This document shows, piece after piece, positions 12,149-29,951 of a stretch of DNA of 64,000 bases. This stretch comes from a phage, in assembly GCA_012549035.1 (NCBI GenBank), contig GCA_012549035.1_4805.1, one strand, 5' to 3'. A model generated the notes under the pieces. That model was not told where the DNA came from, ran no database searches, and saw nothing but the letters and a program-made list of their open reading frames with translations. Both the position numbers and the translations under genes were made by a program. Every line of letters begins with the position of its first letter. Position 1 is the first letter of the stretch.

Positions 12149-12160
12149 GTCGGTGTCCTC

Positions 12161-12646: not shown

Positions 12647-12647
12647 A

Positions 12648-13229: not shown

Positions 13230-13230
13230 C

Positions 13231-13617: not shown

Positions 13618-14078
13618 CAGAATACCCCACCAATTTTACGAAATCCTTCGCGCTCTGGAAGACCACCGAATGACAAGCCACCAACGGCCAATGCTTGAAG
13701 AAGCGCCCACAACGCCATGCCATATGGAGTGCTTGATAGCCAGTATTCCCAGCCATCACTCGCAGGCGGCGCGACTTTGTTCACTGTGATGTCACCAATT
13801 GTTGCGCCAGTCACGAAGCCGCCTTGTTCAACTCCGTCACCAGAAGACACAGACACTTGTTGGTCTGCGGCTATGCATAAAAGATGAGCCGTCATATATT
13901 CCAATGCCAGCTCCAATTTACTGCCATTTAAAACACGACAAGGACTGTCTTGTGATTCAATAAATTCACATGCCATGTCATAGAATACTTGAAGTGTTGT
14001 GTCAGGGAATTTAACCTGATCAGCAAACTGTGGAAATTTAATTCTGAACTTTTCGTAATCTAATGACATGGCATTCAC
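13614..14078 (-). CDS. Hypothetical head completion protein
   Basis: 154-aa ORF overlapping downstream start. Confidence 0.45.
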   Translation of the reverse strand: MNAMSLDYEKFRIKFPQFADQVKFPDTTLQVFYDMACEFIESQDSPCRVLNGSKLELALEYMTAHLLCIAADQQVSVSSGDGVEQGGFVTGATIGDITVNKVAPPASDGWEYWLSSTPYGMALWALLQALAVGGLSFGGLPEREGFRKIGGVFW

Positions 14079-14083
14079 CTTAT

Positions 14084-14548
14084 TTAAACGCGGAATAAAT
14101 CATCTTCTTGGTCGCCGCTCAACTTTACCTTGATGCGCTTGTCAGCAGTTTCGCGCGTCATAGGCGCAAACGGGTCGTCTGACATGCTGCGAACTTCTTT
14201 AGCGACGGCTTTGTGATTGCCAACAATGTCGTGATTTACGACTTTCACCAAACCTTTTTCAAGATGCTGCTTAAACACGTGATGATCTTTCAGATGCTCA
14301 AAATCTGCATCGCTTACAACGGTGACGATTCCTTCAGGAGTCCACAAAGGTGCACCGTCAGCGCCTTTTGCCATTTCACCAAAGCCGGAAGTTGCTGAAG
14401 TAAGACCAGCGCCACCCTTGATCAGAATCTGTTTGCGGATGTTTGGAAGAGCGCCTGAACCAGCTTTTGCATTCGGGTTTTCTTTCACTTCCGTATAGAA
14501 GGTGTAGTTAACTGACATAGACATAGTTGAAACGATGTATTTTGACAT
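14084..14548 (-). CDS. Hypothetical virion protein (possible decoration protein)
   Basis: 154-aa ORF immediately downstream of major capsid gene. Confidence 0.45.
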   Translation of the reverse strand: MSKYIVSTMSMSVNYTFYTEVKENPNAKAGSGALPNIRKQILIKGGAGLTSATSGFGEMAKGADGAPLWTPEGIVTVVSDADFEHLKDHHVFKQHLEKGLVKVVNHDIVGNHKAVAKEVRSMSDDPFAPMTRETADKRIKVKLSGDQEDDLFRV

Positions 14549-14663
14549 TTTGTAGTCCTATTTATATAAGCCTCAGATAAGCCCCTACAGCCCTTGAGGT
14601 CTATTGATATGGGGCGAAGCCTTTCGACCACGCCCCATGTGTTTTACTGTGTAATCACAGCAA

Positions 14664-15803
14664 TTAAATACCAGTCATACGGACGACTGCGAAAGGACGC
14701 TTGAGCAAAACGCCTGCTGTTGCGTTTGCGTAGTCTTCAACGTAGCTCTTAGCACGCTTTTCAACGCCCAGAGTCATGAACTTGGTCTGAACCAGCTGAC
14801 TGAATACGGAACCATCATCGCTTGAGCCATCGATTGAGGAATCAATGTGATCAGCGTACAGGTATGCCACGTTCAAGAAAGTCGGGTCACTGCCAAGTGC
14901 GCCGTTGAGTTCCGGTGCAGACTTGATCTTCATCTTCGGATAAGTCTGGGTGATCCAGTCACGTACAGAAATACCGAAGTCAGTGGTGTTGGACAGCCAA
15001 TCGATAGAGTTTGTCGGCAGCGCCAGAGTCATGTCAACCTTCTCTGGATCAATCTGGTCCTGAGAGTTCACACGAATTTGACGAACCATCAAACGGATGT
15101 CTGCAGTCACCTGTTGGAAGGTCGCAGTAGCCCAGCCGGAAGTGGTGTTGGAAGTCATCGCCGCTGGCAGGTTTGGATCATTCAGGAAGCCGAACGTGCG
15201 GTTGTTCCCGTTGTACCAACCATAGAAGCCGATTGCGTTACGCATGATTTCCAGAGATACAGCGGCCTGCTGGCGTTTGGTTTCTGCGGAGTTCAGACGC
15301 ATCGCAGACGCGCGGCCTTCTTCCAGCATACCAACTGCCATGCCCATTTCACCGCGAACGATAGAGCGACGTTCAAAGTTTACGTTCCAGCTTGCCAGAG
15401 GAATAGAGGTGAAATCACCATATTCAACTGCGGTGCCAGCTGGTTCAACGATGCCCTGAACGATTTCTGCATCTTCCCACTGACCAACGGTATCAATACC
15501 AACCAGCTCGTCGATTTTACGAGCAGCCGTCATGATTTTGACGAAGCCAGGCAGCCACTGCTGCAGGAATTGCAACGGGGTCGGGATTGACGGAGTAGTC
15601 TGCGGCGCAGTAAACGCGGCGTCACCTACGCGAAAAGCGCCTGCACGGTTTAAGTGCTCAATCTGATCACGCACAATCGCGGAATCAAACACAATACCGA
15701 TACGAGCAAGCTGGGAAACAGCCGCGTCAGTAACGGATTGCATATCAAAAGGGCGCACCTTGCTCGCTGGGAGGCGAGAGTGTGTTTGGCTAATGCGAGT
15801 CAT
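14664..15803 (-). CDS. Major capsid protein (putative)
   Basis: 379-aa ORF after scaffold/protease genes; size and position typical of HK97-fold capsid proteins. Confidence 0.55.
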
Positions 15804-15817
15804 TATTCACCTGCCTA

Positions 15818-16435
15818 TTAACGAGTCAATTGTACAATGGTATAAGTGGAAGACTGGACGCTTGGGCCGGAAAGGGCAATAGCAGTCGGGTCAATCACGA
15901 TACCGCCTGGAATGGCAACCATGCCAGTTGGCAGTGAGCCAGTGTAGGCGATAATTGCACCGATAGGCAAGTTGTTCGGGTTGTTACCGCTGGAAATGCC
16001 TTTAGGTACATAAGCGAGCAGGTCGCCGTAGTTCAGCGTCTGCGGACTGGTGCTTGGGTTGAATACTTCAACTACGAGGCCCGTGCACATATCGTAGAAC
16101 TCGCCTTCGCTATATTGAGGCAGAACCATGCTGGCGCCCAAAGGACCAGTAGAGTTGCCATACAGAGCGTAACGCTTGCTGTTGCCAAGGATGCCATAGT
16201 AATTGGTGCCGCCCAGTTCAACTTCAAAGTCCTGCGCGCCCAAGGTTTTGGTTTGACCAGTACCCATTAAAGATACGTCATCTTTAAAACCAAACACACG
16301 GCTAATGGCGTTTACGTTTGCACCGTCGTTGGCGCTAACGATTCGGCCTGGCTTCCCACGCTGTGGGCCGTCGCGAACGATGTCGCCAGGAAAGCCAGTT
16401 GTATATTGACGGCCTACACTAGTTTGGAAAGTCAT
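15818..16435 (-). CDS. Hypothetical head protein (scaffold or decoration)
   Basis: ATG at 16435 overlaps upstream stop and has AAGGGG SD; track ORF starts at non-ATG 16456. Confidence 0.5.
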   Translation of the reverse strand: MTFQTSVGRQYTTGFPGDIVRDGPQRGKPGRIVSANDGANVNAISRVFGFKDDVSLMGTGQTKTLGAQDFEVELGGTNYYGILGNSKRYALYGNSTGPLGASMVLPQYSEGEFYDMCTGLVVEVFNPSTSPQTLNYGDLLAYVPKGISSGNNPNNLPIGAIIAYTGSLPTGMVAIPGGIVIDPTAIALSGPSVQSSTYTIVQLTR

Positions 16436-16437
16436 GT

Positions 16438-17856
16438 TTATTCCCCTTTCAACCAAGCTTCAAATGCTTCGTCAGTTGCTGCAGAATCCGCAGCGGCCTT
16501 TTGTTTTGCGACTACACGCTGTTTTTGACCGTGTTCAACGCCGCGCAGATAATTATCCACAACGTCAAACTCAGCACCATCAACGCACTTCAAGCCTAAC
16601 TTTTTAGCGCCATATTTCGCTACGGACTTGGAGTCCATAGTTGCATGATCAAAGGCACCAACAACTTTAGACAGGCGCTGGTAGAGGCTATTCTTACGAG
16701 CAGAATCAGCGTAGAAAGCAGCAACTGCTGAATCAGATGCCATTGAGTGTTCCCCTTTTGCTGGACCTGGCGACGCTTTCGCCGCTTTTGTCGGTTTGTC
16801 ATCTTTTTCGACCGAAGCCCCCTTTACGTTGCTGTTTTGCAGGCCGCTAACCACATCTTCAGCTTTGTCGCAAGGTGATACATCTTCAGCCTTGACTTCA
16901 ACTTCTTCGTCTTTGACTTCGGCTTCAACTTCTTCTTCATCACCTACCGCGCCACCTTTCAGTTTTGCAATAAGTGCTTCGATTTGGCTGATCAATTGCG
17001 GAAGTTCGCCGCCAGCGTGAGATTCAGTTTCAACTTCAAACTTCTCTTCACCTTCTGGGGTTTCTTCTGCTTCTGCCTTGACTTCTGGATCAACCATTAC
17101 TTCTTCACGATTTTCGGTTGAGTCCTTCTCTTCTGCTTTCACTTCAACTTCATCCTGATGAGCAGCTTCAGCACTCTCTTCGTTCAGAAATTGTTCGAGC
17201 GCAGGGATCAGTGATTTCAGCTGTTCAACAGCATTATCACGCGCTTTACCTTTTAACGGTTTTGGCATGTCTAAATCCTCGTTGGATGGTGTTACAGTCG
17301 TCAAACAAAGATGGTCAAAGCAACGACCATCCAGCACCCGTGCACCTGGTACTCGACCAACGTCCACGAGAGCAATGTGGTTGCCGCGAAGAGTTGTCTG
17401 CACCACTTCATACGGCTGCCCGTCAAACTCTCCAGACTGTATGATGAATTCACAGTCATAGCCCAAAGACAAGTCAACCTTTCCAGAATCAATGGCCTTC
17501 TTCAGACGACGGCTAAACACTTTAAGGTCGCCGCGCATCCATGGCTTGTCATAATAAACATTGCCAGTCAGAACGCCATCAACTCCATACTCTTCGGGTG
17601 CTGTGTTATCCTCATCACCTTCAAATCCAGAAAGCATTTCGTGATTGTCGATGAAAGGGATATTTTTGAATGAATCTATCGCTTCGGGGTCTTTCACCGC
17701 TGACTCAGGGCGATAGACTTTTACGATGCGATTCGGATCACCATCAAGACCAACTTGACCAGCAGAATAATCAAAAATGCCAAATGACGAAATTGGACAA
17801 CCCATAATCGTCAAGAATCCATTTTTGTCAATTTCGCGTGCCGTTTGCATTCGCAT
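16438..17856 (-). CDS. Prohead protease / scaffolding-like protein with acidic coiled-coil region
   Basis: 472-aa ORF; Glu/Lys/Ala-rich central region typical of scaffolds; GAGGGTGG SD; alternative ATG at 17850. Confidence 0.45.
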   Translation of the reverse strand: MRMQTAREIDKNGFLTIMGCPISSFGIFDYSAGQVGLDGDPNRIVKVYRPESAVKDPEAIDSFKNIPFIDNHEMLSGFEGDEDNTAPEEYGVDGVLTGNVYYDKPWMRGDLKVFSRRLKKAIDSGKVDLSLGYDCEFIIQSGEFDGQPYEVVQTTLRGNHIALVDVGRVPGARVLDGRCFDHLCLTTVTPSNEDLDMPKPLKGKARDNAVEQLKSLIPALEQFLNEESAEAAHQDEVEVKAEEKDSTENREEVMVDPEVKAEAEETPEGEEKFEVETESHAGGELPQLISQIEALIAKLKGGAVGDEEEVEAEVKDEEVEVKAEDVSPCDKAEDVVSGLQNSNVKGASVEKDDKPTKAAKASPGPAKGEHSMASDSAVAAFYADSARKNSLYQRLSKVVGAFDHATMDSKSVAKYGAKKLGLKCVDGAEFDVVDNYLRGVEHGQKQRVVAKQKAAADSAATDEAFEAWLKGE

Positions 17857-17968
17857 CCACCCTCAAATAAGTATTGTGTATTATATCTAATGAAAAAAAC
17901 TTAGGCAAACAATAATTATGGTTTGAATATGTATAACAACCGATATAGCCGCGCCTTTATTAGTGTGA

Positions 17969-18193
17969 TACGGATGATACGGATAAAATGAGGCGTATTT
18001 TTATCCGTATCGGTGTATAAGCCGCGCTATCACTGGTGTGCTACGGATGATACGGATGATACGGATACTTTTCATATATAAGAGTTTATAAAAAAAAATA
18101 AAATTAAATTATATATATAATTTTAAATTAATTTATTTGAATTCCTATATAGTACGGCGGCAACGCGTATCATCCGTATCATCCGTAAGATTC
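17969..18193. repeat. Iteron cluster R1 (GATACGGAT-type 9-bp units) flanking extreme AT-rich tract
   Basis: GATACGGATGATACGGATA (x2), inverted TATCCGTATC, CTACGGATGATACGGATGATACGGATAC (x3), AT-rich 18075-18150, then 29-bp GCGTATCATCCGTATCATCCGTAAGATTC (18165-18193) identical to 34419-34447. Confidence 0.6.
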
Positions 18194-18273
18194 TTTTGAA
18201 AACAATAACTTACTTGATACGTATGATACGTCATTATACGTATAAAACTCGCGGCAATCCTTTGCCGATGAAT

Positions 18274-18411
18274 TCAGTGGATATTAAATAGCACTCCTGC
18301 AACTAAAACGCCAATCAGCATTGAGTCATAAACAGCCCATTTCCAAGAAAGCAAAGAGTTGCAATTAATATTTCGCACTTTAACATAATGTGACTGAATA
18401 ATCTTTTGCAT
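18274..18411 (-). CDS. Small membrane protein (45 aa)
   Basis: Hand-translated MQKIIQSHYVKVRNINCNSLLSWKWAVYDSMLIGVLVAGVLFNIH; GAGGAAG SD before ATG; hydrophobic C-terminus; below ORF-track size cut-off. Confidence 0.4.
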   Translation of the reverse strand: MQKIIQSHYVKVRNINCNSLLSWKWAVYDSMLIGVLVAGVLFNIH

Positions 18412-18421
18412 AACTTCCTCT

Positions 18422-19342
18422 TTAGTTCAGCTTGATTGCGGTGATCTGTCCGTAAACGGTAGATGTCAATGCCTCTGTGCATTGATAGTTTAGATACACG
18501 TTGCCAGGCGCGGCAAGAGTGATTATCTTTGTTGGAATATTGCCGCCGAAACGACCTGCAGCCCGAATGCCAGCTGACATCGTAAATGCATCATCCGTAA
18601 TATCTGAATCGCTTGTTGACAATTTGGCTGTAATTCCGGTATTCGCTTGAATTCCTGCTGTCGCGACAGTCAACTGACTTGCCGTCACAAGCCACTTTCC
18701 TGCAGGAAGGTTTAAGGTCGCCAGATTAACCAAAGTGGTTGGAGGATTGCTAACACTGTTCGTGGCACTCTGGACGGTGCTTTCCGCTGCGTTAAGCACA
18801 CCGGAACCATCAATTGATAGAGTTGTACCGACCTTTACGCCGCCTAAAGTAGATGCTGACGCAATCGGCAATGAGTATTGAGTAACGCTAATTGTACCGT
18901 CACCTGCGACGCTTATTCCGCTTCCTATTTTGACGCCGCCGAGAACAGAAGCCGTTGCCGCTGGTAACGTGTATTGGTTGCCGCTTGATTTGACCACTTT
19001 AACGGCGACAGCATTCTTTGACCCTCCAGACTCCATTCCTATAATCACTGCTTCTCCAAAAGCGATGGTGATTGTAGATGCAGTTAAACCAGTCTGCACG
19101 TCTGTTATGTTCATTTTGGGAACTGAAAGTGTCAGATTCGGCTTGCTGGTAGAATCGCCATCATTACCGATCATAAAGAATTGACCAACTGAATTGTATC
19201 CAGACGCCAATGGCGGACTCAATGGAACAATCAGGTTTTTATCGGATGTAAATTCTGAAACAATCGCCAAACCGTTAGCATATACAGCAGGCAATACTGG
19301 CGTTTGTCCAGATAGAGGAAACGTGCTGATTGGTATCGTCAT
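18422..19342 (-). CDS. Virion protein with Ig-like/fiber repeats (head fiber or decoration, putative)
   Basis: Repeats LPAATASVLGGVKIGSGISV / LPIASASTLGGVKVGTTLSI; ATG at 19342 with GAGGT SD avoids overlap with MuF-like gene. Confidence 0.5.
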   Translation of the reverse strand: MTIPISTFPLSGQTPVLPAVYANGLAIVSEFTSDKNLIVPLSPPLASGYNSVGQFFMIGNDGDSTSKPNLTLSVPKMNITDVQTGLTASTITIAFGEAVIIGMESGGSKNAVAVKVVKSSGNQYTLPAATASVLGGVKIGSGISVAGDGTISVTQYSLPIASASTLGGVKVGTTLSIDGSGVLNAAESTVQSATNSVSNPPTTLVNLATLNLPAGKWLVTASQLTVATAGIQANTGITAKLSTSDSDITDDAFTMSAGIRAAGRFGGNIPTKIITLAAPGNVYLNYQCTEALTSTVYGQITAIKLN

Positions 19343-19349
19343 AATGACC

Positions 19350-20201
19350 TCAAATGATTGGTATTTTTCTGCACTTGCAGTGTATTGCCCATCCAGGAGG
19401 ACCGATGTCACCCTTTTTGAACTTCAATTCGCCGCCAACTTCCCATAGGCGCTTGTCATCAAGTTTGAATCTCATTCCGTCGACGTGTTCATGAGAGATT
19501 CGCGGCTCCTTTCCTGCTCCTGAGTGCGCCCACTCAAATTCTTCGACTCCATTCTGGCGCATCCTTTCATCGCTTAGAACGCAATACAATTTGCTTGTCT
19601 GGTCTTTAGCGATCAAGTCGACTCTCTTTGCAGAGAAGTGTTTTACGTTTCGCAATGCCGCCTGAATGCCTGACGTGCCTTGCTGGGCTGGGTCGGGAGA
19701 AGTCAGCGAAAGCATGACTGCTTCGTACACTCTGTTGTGAATATCCTCGCCGACCTTAGTCACTAGAGTCGTGTTAAACTTCTCGCTTGTTCTAAGAGTG
19801 TTCTCAACGAATTTGTTATATGTGGCCTTTGGCGCTTCTATGCCTGCGGACTTAAGGCTTGCGAATGTAGCAGAAGTGGCACCCTTTTCGACCGATTTGA
19901 TAAAATCAGCGGCAATCTTCGACCCAACACGTGCAAACGCCTTTGCCCATTTCAGTTGCAGCCGTTTCATAAGGGTCTGGAATGTCGAATCAGCAGAGTC
20001 TTGCGCAAAAAACTTCTGCACCTGCTTCTTGTCAAGCCATTCTGAAATGCCTGCCTGATAGTCATCAATCATCGCATAGCAAAGACCTTTCATCTCACGA
20101 CGATAGGCCATCGCGATTGCGTTGGATGGGATTATCGGACTGCCGCGCCCGACTCTATCGGGTAAGCGGCGTTCACGTTTTTTCGAAGCTTTAAAAGCCA
20201 T
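19350..20201 (-). CDS. Head morphogenesis protein (Mu F / SPP1 gp7-like)
   Basis: C-terminal HVDG...PPGWAIHCKCRKIPII resembles conserved MuF-family motif; directly downstream of portal; ATG at 20201. Confidence 0.6.
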   Translation of the reverse strand: MAFKASKKRERRLPDRVGRGSPIIPSNAIAMAYRREMKGLCYAMIDDYQAGISEWLDKKQVQKFFAQDSADSTFQTLMKRLQLKWAKAFARVGSKIAADFIKSVEKGATSATFASLKSAGIEAPKATYNKFVENTLRTSEKFNTTLVTKVGEDIHNRVYEAVMLSLTSPDPAQQGTSGIQAALRNVKHFSAKRVDLIAKDQTSKLYCVLSDERMRQNGVEEFEWAHSGAGKEPRISHEHVDGMRFKLDDKRLWEVGGELKFKKGDIGPPGWAIHCKCRKIPII

Positions 20202-20202
20202 A

Positions 20203-22578
20203 TCAACCTTGCTTCGGTGAATTAGTAGGATTGTTGAGTGCTCCATATGCTTGAGAGCAATCACCCTTCAACCACTCCTTGAATGAGTTTACATCCAATT
20301 CGTGGATTGAGTCAAATCCATTCCAACCGTTACCAAATGATGCTTGATAAGCTTCTTTCGCTTCTTCTGCTGAATCGAATCCAAGCATACATTTGTGTTC
20401 ATCAAACTCGCCAGAGTAGTTATCGTTTTGGTTCACGATAAAAACTTTCGGTGACTTCAGATTTGGACCCACAAAGCAGTCGACTTCATCGCCGTCCGCG
20501 CCCTTGGTGCCCTTGATGAATCCGTAGTGGTGCGGCATCTTGACTGCCCATTCACCGTCAAGGCTGTTTCCTCTACGGATGCTGTTGCGAGGATTCTCAA
20601 TCCCAAGAATCAGTCCATGCAACTTCATCTTAGGTAATGATGCTGCGTCCATCTTTCCAACGTTGTGTCGTAAGTTTACGACATTACCTTTGACGCTTGG
20701 AAGGGTAGACGGTTGCACCGACCGTGAATCTTTTTGAGGGTCAAAATCCACATCCTGACCTTCTTTCAGGTAGTAATCCGCAATACCCTCCAGACCTTCT
20801 TTCAACTGCGTTAGGACATCAACCTGATGGCTTGATTCGTCATCGGTATCGTCCATGTTGATTTCAACAGGTGCTCTGTCAGGGTTTTCCGCCAACTCAC
20901 CACGCGCGGCACCCTCTGGCATAATACCTGTTTCGCTATAGAACTGGCCGCCCATCTTAACGACATCAGCTTTCGCCTGTTCAATATCGGCCTTACCTTG
21001 CAAGACTTCACCAGCAGACTTGCCAAGCAATGCCATATTCTCTGGAGACATCCCTGGGGTTTCTTCTGCTGCGTCTTCCGGCAGACGGTTGTAGCCGCTG
21101 TTTTTGTCGTCTTTGATGCGGTCGCGCTCTTCATCAGGAGAAATGACGCCAGCATCAATAAGAGTTTTGCCAGTGTTGGCTCGCTTATCATTGATTTCTG
21201 CAAGTTGAGTAGCAGTAAGTGAGCCAACTGGTTCCCATGCAACCTTAACATCGACATCCACCCCTTCTGATTTGAGAAGGATTTTGTAATGGCGGTCGAG
21301 AATTTTTGTCAGGTCATGCTGCTGGCACGTTTCCAACTCTTCGTGATAGCTGACCATCTCGAATTCACCAGTGGCATTAAAGCCTTTTGGCGAAGTCCCA
21401 AGCAGTTTGGTCGACGGAACTTTTGCGATTGCGGCCACCAGCTGGTACTGGTTCATGATGATGCTGTCGAAGTCTGACAAGTTGATGTCGAACTGGTCCA
21501 TCTCTTCTTTTTGGCCAAGCACTTTGACTGCATAGTTGTCGCGATACTTGATCCACATCATCAGACGTTCTGCAAAAGACCGCTCATTGGCAATCGCCTT
21601 GTCAACGTCGGTCCGCAGCGTGGTTGTACGCTTGGACATCGCCAGCAATGGCGCTTCGTTAGCGGTACGTTCAGCGGCATAGATGCGTTCATAAATCTGC
21701 TGAGTCAGAGGAATGCCGCCGTAAATATAAGTTGGCTTGAGAATATCAGCTGGCTCATCATTGCGCAAGATGATGAGGTGACTGCGATGATAACGTTGTC
21801 CGCTGATCACCCAGTATTCTGGATCATAGAAGTGCTGTGATGCAGGGTCTGCGGTATTTTCAGACGTCAAAAATGGCATCATCCAATAAGGGTCAACCTG
21901 AATGATTCCCTTGTAAGACCCCTTTGTCACACCATCAATGTTAAAAGGCTTGCTGTAATATTCTGGGTCATCGCTACGCACATCAAATATGATGACGCGG
22001 ATACCAAAAATATTTTTGAATCGTTCGGCTTCAACTAAGTGCTCTTTGATATTAAATTCTTTATCAATTTGCTTTAGGCGTTCGCTTGCCTGCACTGACA
22101 ATTCTGACTCAGAACTGGATTTGACTTCCCAACCTTTACGGACCGCATCGCGGCCTACCATGGAACACGCCTTGTTCACCAGCCAATGCTGTGCGATGAT
22201 GGCACAAGCTTGATAGCCGATGAATGACTGTGACAAATACCAGTTTTGAAGTTGAATAGGTACTGTGTATGGGTTGACCTGCCCTTCTGAACTGATGTTC
22301 TTCAAGGCATTATCCATAACTTTTTTGGATACTGTTGCGGAATCGACTGAACGACCTTTTATGATAGCAACACCGTCGCCATTAATATCAGGCTCATATA
22401 AAGGGAAGTCATCAACCGTTTTAAAGGTCGGTCGATTGCTTTCAGTCTTTTCCCAGCGTTGACCGCTGCCGCGCCTTTCAAGGCGTTCAAACGGTGCCAA
22501 TGGGTCGCCTGGCGGCATCTCCGCTGGTTCGGCTTCTGGTTGCGTCTTCTCCCAGAGTTTTATGCCAAGAATTTTCAT
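20203..22578 (-). CDS. Portal protein with C-terminal inorganic-pyrophosphatase-like extension
   Basis: About 790-aa ORF between terminase and MuF genes; AGGTGG SD before ATG at 22578; C-terminal HHYGFIKGTKGADGDEVDCFVG fits family I PPase signature D-[SGDN]-D-[PE]-[LIVMF]-D-[LIVMGAC]. Confidence 0.6.
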   Translation of the reverse strand: MKILGIKLWEKTQPEAEPAEMPPGDPLAPFERLERRGSGQRWEKTESNRPTFKTVDDFPLYEPDINGDGVAIIKGRSVDSATVSKKVMDNALKNISSEGQVNPYTVPIQLQNWYLSQSFIGYQACAIIAQHWLVNKACSMVGRDAVRKGWEVKSSSESELSVQASERLKQIDKEFNIKEHLVEAERFKNIFGIRVIIFDVRSDDPEYYSKPFNIDGVTKGSYKGIIQVDPYWMMPFLTSENTADPASQHFYDPEYWVISGQRYHRSHLIILRNDEPADILKPTYIYGGIPLTQQIYERIYAAERTANEAPLLAMSKRTTTLRTDVDKAIANERSFAERLMMWIKYRDNYAVKVLGQKEEMDQFDINLSDFDSIIMNQYQLVAAIAKVPSTKLLGTSPKGFNATGEFEMVSYHEELETCQQHDLTKILDRHYKILLKSEGVDVDVKVAWEPVGSLTATQLAEINDKRANTGKTLIDAGVISPDEERDRIKDDKNSGYNRLPEDAAEETPGMSPENMALLGKSAGEVLQGKADIEQAKADVVKMGGQFYSETGIMPEGAARGELAENPDRAPVEINMDDTDDESSHQVDVLTQLKEGLEGIADYYLKEGQDVDFDPQKDSRSVQPSTLPSVKGNVVNLRHNVGKMDAASLPKMKLHGLILGIENPRNSIRRGNSLDGEWAVKMPHHYGFIKGTKGADGDEVDCFVGPNLKSPKVFIVNQNDNYSGEFDEHKCMLGFDSAEEAKEAYQASFGNGWNGFDSIHELDVNSFKEWLKGDCSQAYGALNNPTNSPKQG

Positions 22579-22740
22579 TGTTAACGCCACCTGACAGTGA
22601 AAGGGAATCAATCTATATTATAAATATTCATGTGTTTGTAAGCAAATGATATGTATGGTGATCATAAATAGTTCATAAAATATTTTGCTTTTGTATCATT
22701 TTGAGTTATATTTTAGTTAACCAAACGAAAGGAGATTGAA

Positions 22741-23157
22741 ATGAGCACAACAATTGTATTTGTCGTCTTGCACAACGGCGAAGTCGTTAACGTATGCGAA
22801 TATGAAGAACTGGCAAAGGCCACTGCTGCGCGATACGAAGGTGCTACTATTGACCCGTGGATTTTAGATGCGCGAAACGTCTTGCAGGCGACTTTGGATG
22901 AGTGGTTGTTGGGTCGCAAAGTCTATCCAGTAGACAACATCGACTCAATTCAAGGTGAAACAGTATATTTTGAAGATGAATGCGTTCGCGGCATCGGCAA
23001 ATTTATGGGATTGTGCCCATCTTCATCCAAAAATAAATTTTATCGTATTCAAGTTGAAGAAAACGATATGTTTGACAAAGTTACGCGCTCGATTGTTCCT
23101 GGCGGCGGCACTCCAATATTTATGGCAGAATCAGACATCAAAGGGATTATCAAATGA
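22741..23157 (+). CDS. Hypothetical protein
   Basis: 138-aa ORF with AAAGGAG SD; opposite strand to flanking portal and terminase genes. Confidence 0.55.
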   Translation: MSTTIVFVVLHNGEVVNVCEYEELAKATAARYEGATIDPWILDARNVLQATLDEWLLGRKVYPVDNIDSIQGETVYFEDECVRGIGKFMGLCPSSSKNKFYRIQVEENDMFDKVTRSIVPGGGTPIFMAESDIKGIIK

Positions 23158-23393
23158 GAACTTTAACCGAACTCGATGTTTTGAAAGATGTTGCAGCCGC
23201 GCTGGGCGTTGAAGTCTCCGAAAAGTCGACACTGGGTGCACTGCGTCGTGATTTACTCGAAGCCGTCGACCGCAACGATTTTGATCGTAAGTGTTTGCAA
23301 AAGAAGATTCGACAGGCAGTAAGGGCGGGTAAGCGATTCCGTGCCAGGTCGTTTGCCGCAAGAAAACTCGACCTTCAGCACGGAATGCTTTAG
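23154..23393 (+). CDS. Hypothetical basic protein
   Basis: 79-aa ORF with ATGA overlap to upstream gene. Confidence 0.5.
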   Translation: MRTLTELDVLKDVAAALGVEVSEKSTLGALRRDLLEAVDRNDFDRKCLQKKIRQAVRAGKRFRARSFAARKLDLQHGML

Positions 23394-23396
23394 TTG

Positions 23397-24857
23397 TTAA
23401 AGGTTAGAGAAGAAGCCGGATGCTGCAACAATTGGTTTCATCAATGCCATGATTGCGGCGTCCGCTTTGTTAGGCGATTTAACTCCACGCTTTGCCATAT
23501 CCTTTTTCGATTCAACTTTGAACTTACCAAGAACAGACGTGTCTTTGCGCGGCGCTGACATCTCAAAAAGAAACGTCTCAATTTCTTCCGCAGACCAAGC
23601 AGGAATCCCAAGTTCTGGAATGCCGTCTGTGTCGATGGAAATCAACTCATCGGTCGGATATACGGCTTGCCCTGTCGCATACTCATATGTCTTTCTGAAT
23701 CGTTCGGCAATCTCAGTCCATTTTTGCGCTTTTATGTTTGCGAAATGGTCTTTATTGAGTATTTCAACGTGTGGTAACTCAAGGAAAACGTCATCAGGAT
23801 CATCAACAGCACCTTGCGCGTTGAACGCATTAAATTCGATTCTTGGGAATGTTGGATTTTCATGTATTGCATACTCATTGAGCTCATCAAATTTTGAACC
23901 AGCAAATGCACCGACACCGATGGCGTCATAGGTAATTGACGCGCCGAATGTCAATGCGTCTTTCCAAACTCCGCTTGCGGACTTAAGCAATTCATCTTCC
24001 AGACCTTCCCATGTCTTGATGCCACGTAATACGTTGCCTGTGACGAATGCAGTGGCGTTAAGGTCGTCGCCATCGTCCGCTACGTCAAAGCCTATACGGT
24101 TAGACCCTGACAAACTCCATCCCAGCGTAGGGTGCTTGTGGAGGTTAAGCGCAGCCTTAACGAATGCGCGGTTGATTACAGATTTGTCGCCGCCAGTCTT
24201 CGGCACGCCGCCATAAACGTGCTCTGCCTTTTTCGGGTCACGCTCGTACATGCCTGCAATAACGTCCAGCATTGTTTGCGACAAAAATGGATTGTCTTGC
24301 CAGTTTATCTTTTTAACAATGGCATTCTTCGGCGGTCGCATAACAAAGTTTTGGTAGACGAAATCGGCCTCTTCATCAGGGTTAAAGATGATCCATATTT
24401 CGGACCCTTCTTTACGGATTGTCGGCTCAATAATGTCCCACTGTTCTTCAGTAAGCGCGTGCGCTTCTTCCAGCCAAAGGACGTCAACACCTTCTGTTGA
24501 TTTAATTTCATCAACGTTACGTGCGATACCGTAAAATAGAAATTCAGATTTAGTTCTTTTATGTTCAATAGAGTTCTTTAATAAATTGAACTCATCTTTG
24601 AAATCAGAAATCTCTATTTTGTCTTTTAATAGAGTATATACAGATTCAGAAATCTTGTTCTGGAATTGTCGAACGCAAAGGAATTTTAATTTGAAGTTTG
24701 CCGCCAAATAAATAGCAAAACCAGCGGCATCGTGCGATTTGGAAGATGCACGACCGCCGTATATTACTTTGTATCGCGCTTTTGTCTTCCAGACTTCTTT
24801 TAAAGCAGGATTCAACTGGTACATGACTTTCCAATTATGTGTTAATATTTTATTCAT
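23397..24857 (-). CDS. terL: Terminase large subunit
   Basis: 486-aa ORF; Walker A-like YGGRASSKS near N-terminus; acidic nuclease-like C-terminal half; adjacent to portal. Confidence 0.8.
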   Translation of the reverse strand: MNKILTHNWKVMYQLNPALKEVWKTKARYKVIYGGRASSKSHDAAGFAIYLAANFKLKFLCVRQFQNKISESVYTLLKDKIEISDFKDEFNLLKNSIEHKRTKSEFLFYGIARNVDEIKSTEGVDVLWLEEAHALTEEQWDIIEPTIRKEGSEIWIIFNPDEEADFVYQNFVMRPPKNAIVKKINWQDNPFLSQTMLDVIAGMYERDPKKAEHVYGGVPKTGGDKSVINRAFVKAALNLHKHPTLGWSLSGSNRIGFDVADDGDDLNATAFVTGNVLRGIKTWEGLEDELLKSASGVWKDALTFGASITYDAIGVGAFAGSKFDELNEYAIHENPTFPRIEFNAFNAQGAVDDPDDVFLELPHVEILNKDHFANIKAQKWTEIAERFRKTYEYATGQAVYPTDELISIDTDGIPELGIPAWSAEEIETFLFEMSAPRKDTSVLGKFKVESKKDMAKRGVKSPNKADAAIMALMKPIVAASGFFSNL

Positions 24858-24933
24858 ATTATAGTTTGCTTGTGCAAGCTATATCAAGTAAAATTATGAT
24901 TCCAGCTTAGTAGTGGATAAAGGGTGATCTTTC

Positions 24934-24960
24934 GGCCAGATTCTTTCTGGCCATTTTTTT
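24934..24960 (+). terminator. Intrinsic terminator-like hairpin
   Basis: Stem ggccag/ctggcc, 7-nt loop, then TTTTTTT. Confidence 0.4.
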
Positions 24961-24974
24961 ATCAGGAGTAAACC

Positions 24975-25205
24975 ATGGCCCTAGTCAACATTCAACTCAC
25001 TCCCTCTTATACTTCCGTAATCTCTGTTGCTGAAAACGTATCAGGAGCACTTATTCAAGTTCGCGGCGGTGCCGCTGAGATTTGTTTTGGGGAAAAGGCC
25101 GATGACAATTTGATCGGAATCGCAGTTGTTGGTACAGTCACAATCCCGCCAGGCGTTGAGATTTTCGCAAAGGGAAGTGGCACATTAATTGCGTCTTCAC
25201 ACTAA
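24975..25205 (+). CDS. Hypothetical protein
   Basis: 76-aa ORF, AGGAG SD 5 nt upstream. Confidence 0.5.
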   Translation: MALVNIQLTPSYTSVISVAENVSGALIQVRGGAAEICFGEKADDNLIGIAVVGTVTIPPGVEIFAKGSGTLIASSH

Positions 25206-25293
25206 TACGATGCCATGGACGGCATAATTCACAAAAAGTTTGCCTTTCTGAAACTCTGCGTTATAATCATATTAACTCAAAACCGGAGGTAAT

Positions 25294-25509
25294 ATGAAAC
25301 TCATCGACCGTGCCATCAAAGCCATAGATAACCATTCCACAGCTATTGCATTTGTAATGGGATTCTGTTTTACTGCTGCGTTTGGCGACGTTCAAACATT
25401 CAAGTCTGTCATCTTGTGCTGGTCTATCTGGTCCCTCATTTCTCTGGTTTTGATTCTTCCGATGACGTGGCTTGTCCTTACTTGTCTGGAATCTCAAGGT
25501 GAAGACTGA
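25294..25509 (+). CDS. Small membrane protein (2 predicted TM; holin candidate)
   Basis: 71 aa; GGAGG SD; two hydrophobic stretches. Confidence 0.5.
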   Translation: MKLIDRAIKAIDNHSTAIAFVMGFCFTAAFGDVQTFKSVILCWSIWSLISLVLILPMTWLVLTCLESQGED

Positions 25510-25730
25510 TGAGACTATCAATCAAAGAGCGGGCAAAACGTCCCAAAAGGAGTGAGCCAAAAGCGAAATATACATGCGTAGGCGGTCCATTCGACGGTCA
25601 AGCGATGTGGCTTTCAAAATCTAATCCATCGACGGTTGAGTTTAGCCTTCATGGAATGCGCGGCAGATACCTGCTAAACAGAGAAACAATCGGCAGCACA
25701 TTTGTGGAGTGGAAAGAAAATGGCAAGTGA
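25509..25730 (+). CDS. Hypothetical protein
   Basis: 73-aa basic ORF, start overlaps upstream stop. Confidence 0.45.
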   Translation: MRLSIKERAKRPKRSEPKAKYTCVGGPFDGQAMWLSKSNPSTVEFSLHGMRGRYLLNRETIGSTFVEWKENGK

Positions 25731-25953
25731 ATTAACTTTAAAAGTACCAAAAGAAGTGCTAGATAAGGCATATGCAGATTCTGTAAAAGAATTGGCCGTG
25801 GTGCTTGGGATTGAAAATGAATTTAACGTTCAATTGCAATTCCTTAAGGACACGCTTCAAATTAAAGAGAATAGAGAGGCTGGAAGCGGTGCGCCTTTAG
25901 CTCTGGCAATCCTCTATACAGGTCTGATTTTGCAATCTGGAGACGAACTGTGA
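25720..25953 (+). CDS. Hypothetical protein
   Basis: ORF in track frame 25702..25953; likely start at MASELTL. Confidence 0.4.
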   Translation: MASELTLKVPKEVLDKAYADSVKELAVVLGIENEFNVQLQFLKDTLQIKENREAGSGAPLALAILYTGLILQSGDEL

Positions 25954-26149
25954 ATCGTTGGTGCAGTTGGAAGTTGAAACGACTCGCATGGGCCAATGCC
26001 GCCAATTCTGCTGGCCCAATCACCGCTGGTGTTGGGTCGATATGGGATGGCGAAGGCCGTTGGGACTCTCTGTGTGGCACGCGCCTATTCTTTCGCGTAA
26101 AATAATTATCACCCTTCCCGCTTCGGGAAGGGAATTTAAAGAGGTTATC

Positions 26150-26491
26150 ATGAACAACACTTTATCACAACTGTTAATCTGGACTATCGCCGCTATCATC
26201 GGCACCGTTATTATGATGTCAAGTGCAAAGGCTGAAACGGATATTTGCGGCAGGCTGATTTCTGAAAACGGCGAAATCTATTATGGCAACTCAAAAGGTG
26301 ATTATATATCGCCTGAAGTTTGCGCTCAGAAGAAAGCAGAAATGCAAAAGCAGTATCATGAAGATCAATCTATATCTCAAGCCGCTCTGATTGAATTAAG
26401 TATATCAGCCATCATCTTTCTAATCGTTTTTATGCTCATTATTAAACCAAATAATGGCAGCCACCGTCATATTCCTCTCAAAAGAAATTAA
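26150..26491 (+). CDS. Membrane protein with N-terminal signal/TM and C-terminal TM
   Basis: AAAGAGG SD before ATG at 26150 (MNNTLSQLLIWTIAAIIGTVIMMSSAKA); track N-terminal extension is Trp/Cys/Arg-rich and unlikely coding. Confidence 0.5.
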   Translation: MNNTLSQLLIWTIAAIIGTVIMMSSAKAETDICGRLISENGEIYYGNSKGDYISPEVCAQKKAEMQKQYHEDQSISQAALIELSISAIIFLIVFMLIIKPNNGSHRHIPLKRN

Positions 26492-26529
26492 GGTTATAAT
26501 ACGGTTGTCGACAAAACGAGGACCGTAAA

Positions 26530-28881
26530 ATGCCAAGGCTAATATTCAAAAACAACTTTGAGGTCGCGCTCGCTCAGCCAACGACGACTTCAGACACCAC
26601 AATCACAATCCGCTCAGGGTCGGGCTTTCCGGCCTTGGGCGCAAACGAGAGTGTAGTGGCGACAATCGTCGACGCTGCAACAGGCCTCCAATTCGAAATC
26701 ATCACAGTAACAGCCGTCGTTGGTGATGTCCTGACCGTTCAGCGTGCACAGGAAGGGACTGCAGCGCGTGCATGGGCTGCTGGTGACATGCTTTCCATTC
26801 GAACAACTGCTGCGACTTTGACGGGTACTGTCCGAAACTTTGGCGTAATTCCTAATGGAGTAAACCTTAACGCGCTGAACGGAAGCTGGTTCGGGCAGTA
26901 TTACCAACTGGCTGATTCTGGGGCATCAATATCACTCAACTATCCTGTCGCACAAGCGGGAATACTTGAAGTTTTACAAACGGGAGTTTCAACGAACGGA
27001 TGTGTTCAGCGATACACACCTTACAACACTAACACTGTATACCAGAGGCTGTATAATGCCATCACATCAACTTGGTCTGATTGGGTTCAAGTTTATAATA
27101 CGCAAAGCGTTATACCAGTCGCAAATGGCGGTACAGGACAAACGACCATCCAAGGGATGAAGTCTGCTTTTGGATTCGGAACGGTCGCTGATCAAAACAT
27201 TGTTCCCACTTCAATGGGCGGTACGGGATCAGCAGACAATGCGCAGGCATGGCTTAACATTCGTCCACAAGGGTCGACTCCGCTGGCTGGCGACCCTGTG
27301 AATGATTATGATGCCGCAACTAAGCGTTGGGTTGAGAACTTAGTAAATACTGGCACCGTTGGCCCAAGCATGAACGGTGTTATGAACTATGGCGTCGGTG
27401 ACTTCCACTTACGCGACAGTCGTGCTTATATTCAACCGTATGAAGTCGTTGCTGATGGGCAGTTGTTAAACCGCGCTGACTGGCCTGAACTTTGGGCGTA
27501 TGCGCAAATGCTTTCTCCTATTGCTGATGCCGACTGGCTTGCCGACCCAGCGAAACGCGGCAAGTATTCACTTGGTAATGGCACAACGACATTCCGTGTG
27601 CCAGACCGTAACGGTATTCAGACGGGATCAATAGATTCTCTTTACGGTCGAGGCGATGGTGGCAATTCAAGTCTCGACGGAACAGTGATTGAATCAGGTG
27701 CACCAGATATTCAAGGTTCCATCCGAACGGTTTCGGCAGCAGCTGTATTTGAAAACTCAGGGCAGAGCGGCGCATTTTACAATCAAGAGGCGACTTATCC
27801 TTATGCAGACCTTGGCAGCATAACTGCGCCAGGCGCTACAACAAATTATCCAAGGCGTGTGAGTTTTTCAGCCAATCGATCAAATTCCGTGTATGGCAGA
27901 ACGACAACCGAAATCCGACCGAAGTCATTCATCGGCGTTTGGGTAATCCGTGCATCTGGTGGGTTCGTGGCGGCGAATACGACTTGGAGCGTTATTAATG
28001 GTGACGCAGTAAAACCTGCAACCGGAACGCTTGTCAGAGGCGGCAGTGTAAAATCTGAATATAAAATTGGCACCAACATTGCGTATCAAGCATTCTTGCA
28101 AGCATACGGTAAGATTGATGGATTAACGTCTGAACAAGGTGCTGTGATATCTAATGGGGTGCAAGAATGGAAGTTTGCGCAAGACGGTACATTTTATTTC
28201 CCTGACTCCATAAATCAAATTGGCACGGAAAGGTCAGACGGGGCGTTGAATGTTAATGCATATCTCAGACCAAAAGACCTTGTTGCGAAACCGTTGAACT
28301 CAGTAGGCGTTTCAGCGTATGAAAGCAACGGCATGAGGATGATAAACTTCAACCAGTCAACACCTGGGTATGTATCATATTTTTCAGGGGATTGGTATGC
28401 TGGCAGTTATACATTCGGAGGCGTTCGAGGCACCGGAGTTGATTTGATGCACGCGCAAATATCCATAAACAATGGGCAAGGCGCTGCAGCAGACTTCAAA
28501 TTTCTACCTGATGGTACTGCTACTGCAGGGAACTGGGTAAGCACGTCTGATGAAAGGGTAAAAACAAATATTCAAAGGATTTCCGACCCGTTAGGAAAGA
28601 TGAGGTTGATCAAGGGTGTGACTTGGGAGCGCCTTGATAAGTCAGAGAAACCGAATGGCATCGGCTTTATAGCTCAAGATGTAGAAGGTGTATTCCCTGA
28701 CGCAGTAAGAACTTTGAAATATTCAAACACGGAACTTAAGGATGGCACGGTTGTAGAGAATATCAAGTCAGTCGACACTTACGGAGTGGCAGCGGCACTG
28801 CACCACGAGGCTATTCTCGCATTGATGGATCAAATAGATGAACTCAAGGCAGAGATAGCCGCGCTGAAAGAAGCGAAATAA
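26530..28881 (+). CDS. Tail fiber/spike with C-terminal intramolecular chaperone (peptidase S74-like) domain
   Basis: 783 aa; GAGGA SD; C-terminal SDERVKTNIQRISDPLGKMRLIKGVTWERLDKSEKPNGIGFIAQDVEGVFPDAV matches auto-cleaving chaperone domain of endosialidase-type fibers. Confidence 0.75.
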   Translation: MPRLIFKNNFEVALAQPTTTSDTTITIRSGSGFPALGANESVVATIVDAATGLQFEIITVTAVVGDVLTVQRAQEGTAARAWAAGDMLSIRTTAATLTGTVRNFGVIPNGVNLNALNGSWFGQYYQLADSGASISLNYPVAQAGILEVLQTGVSTNGCVQRYTPYNTNTVYQRLYNAITSTWSDWVQVYNTQSVIPVANGGTGQTTIQGMKSAFGFGTVADQNIVPTSMGGTGSADNAQAWLNIRPQGSTPLAGDPVNDYDAATKRWVENLVNTGTVGPSMNGVMNYGVGDFHLRDSRAYIQPYEVVADGQLLNRADWPELWAYAQMLSPIADADWLADPAKRGKYSLGNGTTTFRVPDRNGIQTGSIDSLYGRGDGGNSSLDGTVIESGAPDIQGSIRTVSAAAVFENSGQSGAFYNQEATYPYADLGSITAPGATTNYPRRVSFSANRSNSVYGRTTTEIRPKSFIGVWVIRASGGFVAANTTWSVINGDAVKPATGTLVRGGSVKSEYKIGTNIAYQAFLQAYGKIDGLTSEQGAVISNGVQEWKFAQDGTFYFPDSINQIGTERSDGALNVNAYLRPKDLVAKPLNSVGVSAYESNGMRMINFNQSTPGYVSYFSGDWYAGSYTFGGVRGTGVDLMHAQISINNGQGAAADFKFLPDGTATAGNWVSTSDERVKTNIQRISDPLGKMRLIKGVTWERLDKSEKPNGIGFIAQDVEGVFPDAVRTLKYSNTELKDGTVVENIKSVDTYGVAAALHHEAILALMDQIDELKAEIAALKEAK

Positions 28882-28889
28882 TTCACTCA

Positions 28890-28916
28890 AGGCGCTGAAA
28901 AGCGCCTTTACTTTAT
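28890..28916 (+). terminator. Intrinsic terminator after tail fiber gene
   Basis: Stem aggcgct/agcgcct, GAAA loop, T-rich tail. Confidence 0.5.
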
Positions 28917-28964
28917 GCGCTATTAAGTTATACTCATTATACGTTAACAAGTGAGGTGAATGAA

Positions 28965-29246
28965 ATGAAATTTGAATACATCGATAAGGCCCAAAAAGCA
29001 AAGGCGCTGCCTAAATATGTCATCTGTGGTATTGATCCTGAAGATAACCGCTTGGTCTTCTTAAAGCAAGTTGATAGCAATGAATCTGGCGATGCAGTTA
29101 ATTGGTGCATTCCTTTGTTTGAGACAGCAGAAGAAGCCCAGAAAGTATTGTCAGAAAGCAATCTGCCTAAACACTACAACGTGATTTCACAAGATGACAT
29201 GGCAAAATTAGTGTTTAATTTTATGGATATTGGAGAAAGGTTCTAA
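28965..29246 (+). CDS. Hypothetical protein
   Basis: ATG at 28965 after GAGGTGA SD. Confidence 0.5.
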   Translation: MKFEYIDKAQKAKALPKYVICGIDPEDNRLVFLKQVDSNESGDAVNWCIPLFETAEEAQKVLSESNLPKHYNVISQDDMAKLVFNFMDIGERF

Positions 29247-29455
29247 TGGAAATTAAATTATTGTCCGATTTCGTAAAAAGTATTGAATCCAAAGGAATGA
29301 CAATAAAGGCAAAGAAAGGTGGCCTTGTCTGCATCGATAAGCAACAAAGTGATCAGAGTATATCTCTTGATGATATCAAAACTATGCAAAAGCTTAACAA
29401 GAAGGGCGACTTGCACAAGTTCTTAATTGATATTGGGGCGGTGGACAATGGATAA
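29246..29455 (+). CDS. Hypothetical protein
   Basis: 69-aa ORF, start overlaps upstream stop. Confidence 0.5.
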   Translation: MEIKLLSDFVKSIESKGMTIKAKKGGLVCIDKQQSDQSISLDDIKTMQKLNKKGDLHKFLIDIGAVDNG

Positions 29456-29546: not shown

Positions 29547-29548
29547 TT

Positions 29549-29944: not shown

Positions 29945-29951
29945 GGTTAAT

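Follow-up and report, generated by a model that had tools for sequence, protein, structure and literature searches.

The C-terminal ~125 residues of a portal protein encoded in a 64,000-nucleotide stretch of phage DNA (hereafter, the window) form a true, though divergent, homologue of the family I inorganic pyrophosphatases (PPases), fused to a portal of the PF06381 family. A preliminary description of this sequence had proposed a portal ORF with a PPase-like C-terminal domain, which is borne out by a match to the Pfam family PF18823 (InPase), by PPase fold matches and by an hhalign alignment over the whole domain. The same description mentioned no precedent for a portal with a PPase-like module; the fusion is real but already catalogued, with its own family in Pfam (PF18823) and its own PHROG (4660), and was described by Iyer, Burroughs, Anand, de Souza and Aravind in 2017 (J Bacteriol, PMC5512222), who defined the InPase domain and reported the portal fusion BcepF1.124. 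The observation, as far as the sequence is concerned, is not new. The source of the window is a phage of Escherichia coli from the coliphage genus Wifcevirus, a distant relative of Pbunavirus. Pbunavirus phages are used in therapy, and the InPase domain is under strong constraint and unseen in both published portal structures; knowledge of its substrate, and of whether it is ejected, would show what Pbunavirus and Wifcevirus phages need to hydrolyse at the onset of infection.

Organization of the portal-InPase gene

The gene is part of a TerL-portal-MuF-protease-MCP module, with TerL located upstream and the genes for MuF, the protease and MCP downstream:

23397..24857 (-), large terminase subunit (PHROG 3717, PHROG 2; Mansfield annotation), upstream in the same head module
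20203..22578 (-), portal-InPase gene, 791 aa from the ATG, plus stop codon
19350..20201 (-), MuF-like head morphogenesis gene (PF04233; PHROG 324 at E 2e-66)
16438..17856 (-), head maturation protease (PF09979 at E 5.5e-35; PHROG 3778 at E 1.5e-172)

In the ORF list, the longest portal-InPase ORF covers 20203..22611 (-) and encodes 802 aa, its first codon being a TTG at 22611. The ATG located 11 codons inside this ORF is the start annotated in phage Mansfield (97% identical), and another protein of 791 aa (P0168) is 99% identical to the portal-InPase protein, which matches PHROG 4660 over its full length. The ATG of the MuF-like gene lies one base past the portal stop codon (TGAtATG). The head maturation protease, encoded three genes downstream of the portal-InPase gene, consists of a DUF2213 N-terminal domain and an acidic region rich in Glu, Val, Lys and Ala. 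Separate production of the InPase domain from an internal start was considered and rejected, the ATGs of M654 and M662 being without a convincing Shine-Dalgarno sequence. Between 19300 and 23300, sites resembling promoters or terminators occur at no higher a frequency than in shuffled sequence.

The protein can be divided into four consecutive parts:

21175..22215 (-), portal core, PF06381 Phage_portal_3, ORF residues 133-479 (TTG numbering)
20929..21045 (-), long predicted helix, residues 512-550 (ATG numbering) of the full-length AF2 model
20635..20928 (-), variable tether from the barrel helix to the enzyme domain, residues 551-648 (ATG numbering)
20266..20634 (-), InPase domain, PF18823, ORF residues 660-782 (TTG numbering), 123 residues

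The portal core, encoded beside terminase and head genes, matches PF06381 with 296 bits (E 3.4e-88), and in blocks of 20 residues its conservation relative to homologues ranges between 0.45 and 0.88. We take the helix 512-550 to be the probable equivalent of the C-terminal barrel helix that projects into the capsid in the portals of phages E217 and Pa193. The tether of ~100 residues comprises two predicted disordered segments on either side of a single helix (580-603), with pLDDT below 50 at 552-579 and 619-632 in the AF2 model. Across residues 521-640 (ATG numbering), identity to homologues drops to 0.12-0.27, with gaps of up to 49%, and the length of the stretch 520-645 varies between 93 and 166 residues in 121 homologues. 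The InPase domain itself is modelled by AF2 with a pLDDT of 88.6 and a pTM of 0.82.

Relationship to family I pyrophosphatases and the active site

The InPase domain matches PF18823 with 156.8 bits (cut-off, 26.8; E 3.7e-46) over profile positions 12-135 of 135. At the sequence level, the match to PF00719 is below the cut-off (18.0-20.6 bits versus 23.5, 25 residues aligned), the similarity to classical PPase sequences is limited to a 24-residue YG..DGD..D stretch, and a PDB sequence search retrieved classical PPases with E-values of 0.17-1.1 when queried with the single sequence and of 0.01-0.6 with a 21-sequence profile. Given that such matches are insufficient alone, fold and profile-profile comparisons were used. 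PPases were the sole top matches in the fold comparison, and the domain displays the PPase OB-fold with C-terminal helices; as in family I PPases (PF00719, EC 3.6.1.1), an OB-fold core is followed by a helix-strand-helix. An hhalign comparison against a 9-sequence PPase profile, constructed from plasmid-borne ppa genes, aligned 124 columns with 95.7% probability (E 1e-8). This profile replaced the single E. coli sequence, against which the second half of the domain was mis-registered, with FDEHK paired with YDHIK. That the domain lacks a PPase fold, or resembles PPases in the Asp-rich stretch only, was checked and is not the case at the fold and profile level.

Family I PPases share ~14 conserved active-site residues, namely, E20, K29, E31, R43, Y51, Y55, D65, D67, D70, D97, D102, K104, Y141 and K142; all 14 identities were verified against the E. 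coli ppa sequence. The E. coli motifs that the preliminary description quoted, including DEAGEDAK, are correct against MG1655 ppa, and the PPase-like motifs to which it drew attention in the portal C-terminus are found at the first two of the following positions:

20467..20532 (-), HHYGFIKGTKGADGDEVDCFVG motif, in which Y696, D706, D708 and D711 correspond to E. coli Y55, D65, D67 and D70
20392..20406 (-), FDEHK motif, in which D737 corresponds to E. coli D102, with K740 or H739 in place of K104
20596..20598 (-), codon of E672 (IENP motif), corresponding to E. coli E20 (hhalign)
20575..20577 (-), codon of R679, within two positions of E. coli K29 (hhalign)

The InPase domain does not have the complete set of 14. 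Seven E. coli residues (E20, Y55, D65, D67, D70, D97 and D102) have an identical residue opposite them in the alignment. E672, D706, D708, D711, D730 and D737 make up the retained acidic centre for metal binding and water activation, with Y696, R679 and K740 also kept; the latter two are basic counterparts, one or two positions off, of K29 and K104, K740 being the probable counterpart of K104. E31, Y51 and K142 are replaced by Gly, Met and Gly, respectively, and R43 is deleted. Y141 corresponds to F759 in the Wifcevirus copy and is Tyr in most family members. In E. coli PPase, R43, Y51, Y141 and K142 contact phosphate, and R43, Y141 and K142 hold the leaving phosphate. With E31, R43, Y51 and K142 lacking counterparts and Y141 being a Phe, canonical binding of pyrophosphate (PPi) is doubtful, and the PPi handling suggested in the preliminary description is putative.

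The domain is also more compact than E. coli Ppa, ~125 residues compared to 175, that is, about 50 shorter, with the E20-Y55, D70-D97 and D102-Y141 spans reduced to 24, 19 and 22 residues from 35, 27 and 39, respectively, and it is fused to a structural protein, whereas E. coli Ppa is a free hexamer. Judging from the alignment, the hairpin insert between the first and second core strands is absent, the gap falling opposite E. coli ~37-45, which includes R43. This is a family trait: all solved PPases contain the beta-hairpin insert at this position, whereas the InPase family is without it (Iyer et al., 2017; PMC5512222).

The residues that are retained are extremely well conserved. In 164 diverse family members, conservation reaches 99% or more at E672, R679, Y696, D706, D711, Q728, D737, E738 and K740; none of these residues varies in 121 portal fusions of only ~50% identity, a set in which D708 is 93% conserved. 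Family-specific residues are similarly constrained in the portal fusions, with N673, Q728 and Y755 being invariant, W688 present in 120 of 121 and H739 in 100 of 121; in the wider family, H695 reaches 75% conservation. The constellation E..R..W..YG..D.D..D..G..Q..DEHK..G..A..Y, which comprises every position conserved in at least 90% of the 164 members, is present in the Wifcevirus protein, and its positions are at least 93% conserved in the 121 portal fusions except for H739 (83%). The InPase domains of the Wifcevirus copy and phage Mansfield differ by 21 synonymous and one non-synonymous substitutions (pN/pS 0.012), and purifying selection on this domain equals that on the portal core in strength.

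Relatives and other fusions

The portal-InPase architecture was found in 120 of 120 full-length homologues listed, down to 48% identity, in a single ORF in 29 sequenced Wifcevirus records and, overall, in every Pbunavirus and Wifcevirus checked. BcepF1.124 (YP_001039808.1; P0198) is a full-length homologue with 53% identity and the same portal-then-InPase order. Some GenBank records name the protein 'inorganic pyrophosphatase' or 'phosphatase family protein'. The InPase family as a whole is large, with 11,279 cluster representatives in a metagenome-scale library and occurrence in 466 of 50,697 phage records. The domain is also found in polyvalent proteins of giant phages and in proteins matching DarB-like antirestriction families. 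Longer relatives append an Alt-like ADP-ribosyltransferase or a topoisomerase IB (TopoIB) to the portal-InPase core, and there is a split version with InPase, portal and TopoIB encoded by separate adjacent genes. Further stand-alone copies are located in a head module or beside a gene for a DarA_N protein. Compared with the polyvalent-protein versions, in which the N-terminal AQKEAGNYKKGH motif is conserved, the portal-fused clade is without this motif and begins at profile position 12. Polyvalent proteins carry several effector domains per polypeptide delivered by virions or by conjugation, often together with a processing peptidase (Iyer et al., 2017; PMC5512222). By comparison, the portal-InPase protein combines one effector-type domain with the portal and lacks a peptidase domain of its own, although a head protease gene lies nearby.

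Probable place in the virion and possible roles

The gp19 portals of the Pbunavirus Pseudomonas phages E217 and Pa193 are homologous to the Wifcevirus protein (representative P0232, 765 aa, ~52% identical) and share both the portal core and the C-terminal InPase, the C-terminal query matching 9b41 at 599-763 with E 5e-50. Cryo-EM revealed dodecameric portals in both phages (PDB 9B41; PMC10329688, PMC11456595), with models spanning residues 94/97-528 of 765 and no density for Pa193 residues 529-765 (PMC10329688, PMC11456595). Because the models end at residue 528, the InPase domain has never been seen and the solved structures are silent on it; the word pyrophosphatase is absent from the main text of both papers. 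The C-terminal barrel of the E217 portal projects into the head and folds only in the presence of DNA (PMC10329688), so that the InPase domain lies at the end of the DNA channel facing the capsid interior. The suggestion in the preliminary description that the domain sits at the DNA channel thus stands as far as the inner end is concerned, but not for a rigid position, the domain being attached through a ~100-residue, poorly conserved tether, most of which is predicted to be disordered. Nothing usable on PB1-like virion proteomics covering the portal C-terminus was found in our literature search, and the literature searched contained no enzymatic assay or biochemical study of any PF18823 member or phage pyrophosphatase domain.

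Taken together, these observations suggest a model, to which we give a reasonable though far from overwhelming probability, in which twelve tethered, active copies of a Mg-dependent phosphoanhydride hydrolase reside in the capsid and are delivered to the host with the DNA. Its parts differ in strength. With the C-terminal barrel directed into the head, a portal assembled as a dodecamer would hold twelve enzyme copies within the capsid, where the DNA channel opens into it, and such an interior location is indeed highly likely; flexibility of the tethers would render the copies invisible in symmetrised cryo-EM maps. Catalytic activity is also very probable, and the virion would then carry the Mg2+-dependent phosphoanhydride hydrolase as cargo. 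Release and ejection of the domain is a more tentative proposition. The head maturation protease is a candidate for the enzyme that would cut the InPase module free of the portal, and the freed domain might then enter the host together with the DNA. Inside the host, its target would be either PPi, the removal of which would drive early polymerase reactions forward, or a nucleotide containing PPi. That the substrate is plain PPi is somewhat more doubtful still than ejection. A packaged-and-injected role for InPase has already been proposed (Iyer et al., 2017; PMC5512222), and capsid-carried enzymes thought to act early are known from T4 Alt, P1 DarA/DarB, the N4 virion RNA polymerase and MuF-fused effectors. 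However, unlike these head-internal injected enzymes, InPase has the portal itself as its carrier, and since the portal stays in the virion, delivery requires proteolytic release. It counts against ejection that the tail would not let through a folded domain of 14 kDa, nor one still attached to the ring by its tether.

An unlikely but still sizeable alternative is that the virion-delivered hydrolase acts not on PPi but on a nucleotide-type phosphoanhydride, such as a signalling or toxic nucleotide induced by infection, making it an anti-defence effector mounted on the portal. This option was raised from NUDIX and TmrB associations (Iyer et al., 2017; PMC5512222) and is consistent with the active site, in which the metal centre is kept, R43, Y51 and K142 are lost, Y141 is a Phe, and the family-specific N673, Q728 and Y755 are invariant instead, as nearly are W688 and H739. 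The co-occurrence of InPase with DarA, DarB-like, ADP-ribosyltransferase and GmrSD-type conflict proteins points in the same direction. However, the residues engaging the electrophilic phosphate and the metals suit PPi equally well, and R679, R680, K740 and K778 could compensate for those lost. Substrates conceivable under this alternative may include signals of host immunity, alarmones and chain-terminating nucleotides. The full sequence of events, in which such a nucleotide hydrolase is freed by the head protease and enters with the DNA, is slightly less likely again. If true, the nucleotide-directed alternative would mean that the portal of a lineage in wide therapeutic use (Pbunavirus, Wifcevirus) carries an anti-defence enzyme, and would give an identity to the unseen 237 C-terminal residues of the E217 and Pa193 portals.

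It is less probable that InPase is never delivered and acts only in the producing cell, late in infection, within portals that are free or bound to procapsids, clearing the PPi generated by massive DNA synthesis, with the fusion serving to couple its expression to that of the head genes. The portal is a late protein, and removal of PPi favours replication (Iyer et al., 2017; PMC5512222). However, the host already contains abundant PPase, and twelve copies per procapsid would be a poor bulk metabolic supply. Furthermore, the InPase family is found overwhelmingly in virion-associated or polyvalent proteins and head modules, and the fusion partners, ADP-ribosyltransferase and TopoIB, point to delivered cargo.

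More improbable yet is a non-catalytic, structural function, with InPase serving as a plug or organiser that binds cations or DNA at the channel's inner end and helps to retain or position the genome. The last-packaged end of the DNA lies there, the E217 barrel folds only with DNA present (PMC10329688), and nucleic acids are commonly bound by OB folds. Nevertheless, an acidic pocket is ill-suited to DNA binding, the catalytic-type acidic residues are invariant also in polyvalent proteins and stand-alone genes, and the variation of the tether in length and sequence argues against a fixed structural position. Finally, coincidence, with an Asp-rich motif arising in a disordered tail, or an ORF that artefactually joins two genes, would fit the direct matches to classical PPases, which span 24 residues and fall below the PF00719 threshold, but is refuted by the profile-profile and fold comparisons spanning the whole domain, by its confident AF2 fold (pLDDT ~90) and by the recurrence of the single-ORF architecture in all of the listed homologues and the Wifcevirus records, leaving this explanation with a negligible probability.

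A pyrophosphatase-like domain at the portal C-terminus

The window derives from a Wifcevirus, a genus of E. coli/Shigella myoviruses (~68 kb) distantly related to the Pseudomonas Pbunavirus phages. The portal gene is matched in 29 phage records at 90-98% nucleotide identity, and a public protein of 791 aa (P0168) is 99% identical to its product. Residue numbers follow the TTG-start ORF unless marked ATG.

20203..22611, minus strand: portal-InPase ORF from the first TTG, 802 codons
20203..22578, minus strand: the same gene from the ATG 11 codons downstream, 791 aa, the start annotated in Mansfield, a 97%-identical phage
20467..20532, minus strand: HHYGFIKGTKGADGDEVDCFVG peptide
20392..20406, minus strand: FDEHK peptide

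Pfam searches placed Phage_portal_3 (PF06381) at residues 133-479 (E 3.4e-88) and InPase ('Inorganic Pyrophosphatase', PF18823) at 660-782 (E 3.7e-46); PF00719, the model for classical PPases, aligned over 25 residues at 18-20.6 bits, under its 23.5-bit threshold. The match to PHROG 4660 covers the full length of the protein; on its own, the C-terminal part additionally hits giant phage proteins, among them a DarB-like antirestriction family. Residues 650-802 were modelled by AF2 with high confidence (pLDDT 88.6, pTM 0.82) as a beta-barrel followed by a helix-strand-helix; the best 50 Foldseek matches listed from the PDB are without exception PPases of family I (probability 0.92-1.0, E from 2e-4, TM 0.31-0.51). 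Profile comparison by hhalign (164 InPase versus 9 PPase sequences) aligned 124 columns with 95.7% probability (E 1e-8). Given that the Foldseek and hhalign matches span the domain, the similarity extends beyond the Asp-rich stretch, and the PPase-like C-terminal domain proposed in the preliminary description is real and was correctly read. Both peptides quoted there are present, and the E. coli motifs given alongside them agree with MG1655 ppa.

Active-site residues of E. coli PPase (mature numbering) and their counterparts in the window domain (TTG numbering), with conservation counted in 164 InPase family members and 121 portal fusions
E20: E672; 99% in family, invariant in portal fusions
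K29: R679, within two positions; 99% in family, invariant in portal fusions
E31: G681; lost
R43: no counterpart; position inside deleted hairpin
Y51: M692; lost
Y55: Y696; invariant
D65: D706; 99% in family, invariant in portal fusions
D67: D708; 93%
D70: D711; invariant
D97: D730; D in 56% of family, 64% of portal fusions
D102: D737; 99% in family, invariant in portal fusions
K104: H739 (91% in family, 83% in portal fusions) or K740 (99% in family, invariant in portal fusions)
Y141: F759; Tyr in 76% of family
K142: G760; lost

Judged from this alignment, the metal-binding and water-activating carboxylates of PPase are intact, and several phosphate-contacting residues are missing. In the E. 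coli enzyme, which is ~50 residues longer than the window domain, R43, Y141 and K142 bind the leaving phosphate. N673, W688, Q728, E738, H739 and Y755 are specific to the InPase family and invariant or nearly so. An N-terminal AQKEAGNYKKGH motif is present in the InPase copies of polyvalent proteins, but not in the portal-fused ones.

Distribution and constraint

PF06381 and PF18823 co-occur in all 120 homologues listed (48-99% identical, mostly on 60-75 kb contigs), including those of Pbunavirus NP3, Burkholderia BcepF1, Maja and WTB, Serratia Hera, Xanthomonas Carpasina and Luteibacter Pluto. The InPase domain alone matched 11,279 cluster representatives (E up to 1e-3), for the most part in proteins that are thousands of residues long, and 466 of 50,697 phage records. 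The Pluto homologue is annotated as 'inorganic pyrophosphatase' and BFVD holds viral proteins with this fold under the name 'Inorganic pyrophosphatase domain-containing protein'; Iyer et al. 2017 (PMC5512222) defined the domain, noted the missing hairpin and cited the BcepF1 portal fusion. Thus, the portal-InPase was already known as an annotation.

Sequence comparison with 120 full-length homologues indicates a sharp contrast along the protein: identity is 0.45-0.88 in the portal core and 0.45-0.84 in the InPase domain, whereas ATG residues 521-640 (barrel-helix end and tether) show 0.12-0.27, with gaps up to 49%, and the length from ATG 520 to 645 varies among homologues between 93 and 166 residues. 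Relative to Mansfield, the InPase region carries 21 synonymous and one non-synonymous differences, with pN/pS similar to that of the core (0.012 versus 0.008). In the AF2 prediction for the whole protein, the well-folded enzyme domain is preceded by a long helix (ATG 512-550), disorder (552-579), a helix (580-603) and further disorder (619-632). The first ~100 residues (22279..22578, minus strand) are also variable, with an identity of 0.15-0.30 and numerous gaps, and are probably disordered, as their pLDDT is below 50; LC-MS of Pa193 did not detect portal residues 1-93, which may be cleaved (PMC11456595).

Possible function in the virion

In the homologous portals (gp19) of Pseudomonas phages E217 and Pa193, only residues 97/94-528 of 765 were built (PMC10329688, PMC11456595), and PDB 9B41 matches our C-terminal query solely via unmodelled sequence. 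The E217 C-terminal barrel points into the head (PMC10329688), so that everything C-terminal of it would lie in the capsid lumen. Symmetric averaging would blur out twelve InPase domains on flexible tethers, consistent with the missing density.

Some relatives encode longer portal-InPase-ADP-ribosyltransferase or portal-InPase-topoisomerase IB polypeptides. Five (P0183, P0189, P0242, P0024 and P0269; 1191-1321 aa) carry a C-terminal ADP-ribosyltransferase exoenzyme domain (PF03496) reminiscent of T4 Alt, an injected enzyme, and metagenomic P0029 combines InPase, portal and topoisomerase IB in 1106 aa. In two metagenomic contigs, the modules are split in the order terminase, DUF5661, InPase (219 aa), portal without InPase (543 aa, PF06381) and TopoIB (350 aa).

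L013 4370..7699: split InPase, portal and TopoIB genes, adjoining, after terminase
L014 2142..5471: same arrangement

Other stand-alone InPase genes are located in a head module or next to DarA_N. On a 70-kb metagenomic contig (L011 2289..6699), the gene for a 954-aa DarA_N protein is followed, two genes downstream, by one for a 232-aa InPase, which adjoins holin and LydB lysis genes and has a GmrSD_N gene nearby. These extensions, split genes and stand-alone copies point to the portal C-terminus as a cargo slot for enzymes acting in the host cytoplasm. The module could be freed by the head maturation protease and then ejected into the host.

16438..17856, minus strand: head maturation protease (DUF2213), three genes downstream of the portal

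Iyer et al. 2017 (PMC5512222) proposed that InPase is packaged and injected, suggesting PPi clearance or attack on a nucleotide-like substrate. It is reasonably probable, in our view, that the portal brings a Mg-dependent phosphoanhydride hydrolase into the capsid in the form of this domain, and that the enzyme acts early in infection; our literature search found no enzymatic assay of any PF18823 member. A non-PPi nucleotide substrate, with an anti-defence role, appears unlikely but deserves consideration. Action solely in the producing cell is improbable in view of the virion-associated distribution of the family, and a non-catalytic structural role more improbable still, given that the catalytic-type residues are invariant in non-portal contexts too. 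A chance motif or ORF artefact is refuted.

Other features of the head module and genome

The protease comprises an N-terminal DUF2213 domain (residues 7-174), a long acidic low-complexity stretch rich in Glu, Val, Lys and Ala (~220-330) and a C-terminal region, a layout that resembles a fusion of protease and scaffold-like segment. A 306-aa protein (18422..19342, minus strand), annotated as hypothetical in Mansfield, is encoded between the MuF-like and protease genes and has several segments of the form A(S/T)xxxLGGVK(I/V)G; the sole matches of this protein are weak, to large tail/fibre-like PHROGs (9625 and 10588), and a role in head fibres or decoration is possible. ARAGORN detected no tRNA or tmRNA genes in the whole 64-kb window (1..64000). 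A report, as cited in the BASEL paper, puts Wifcevirus progeny release only 3-5 minutes after adsorption. A 138-aa ORF on the opposite strand (22741..23157, plus strand), without a PHROG match, is wedged between TerL and the portal gene, where the Mansfield record also has two small opposite-strand genes.
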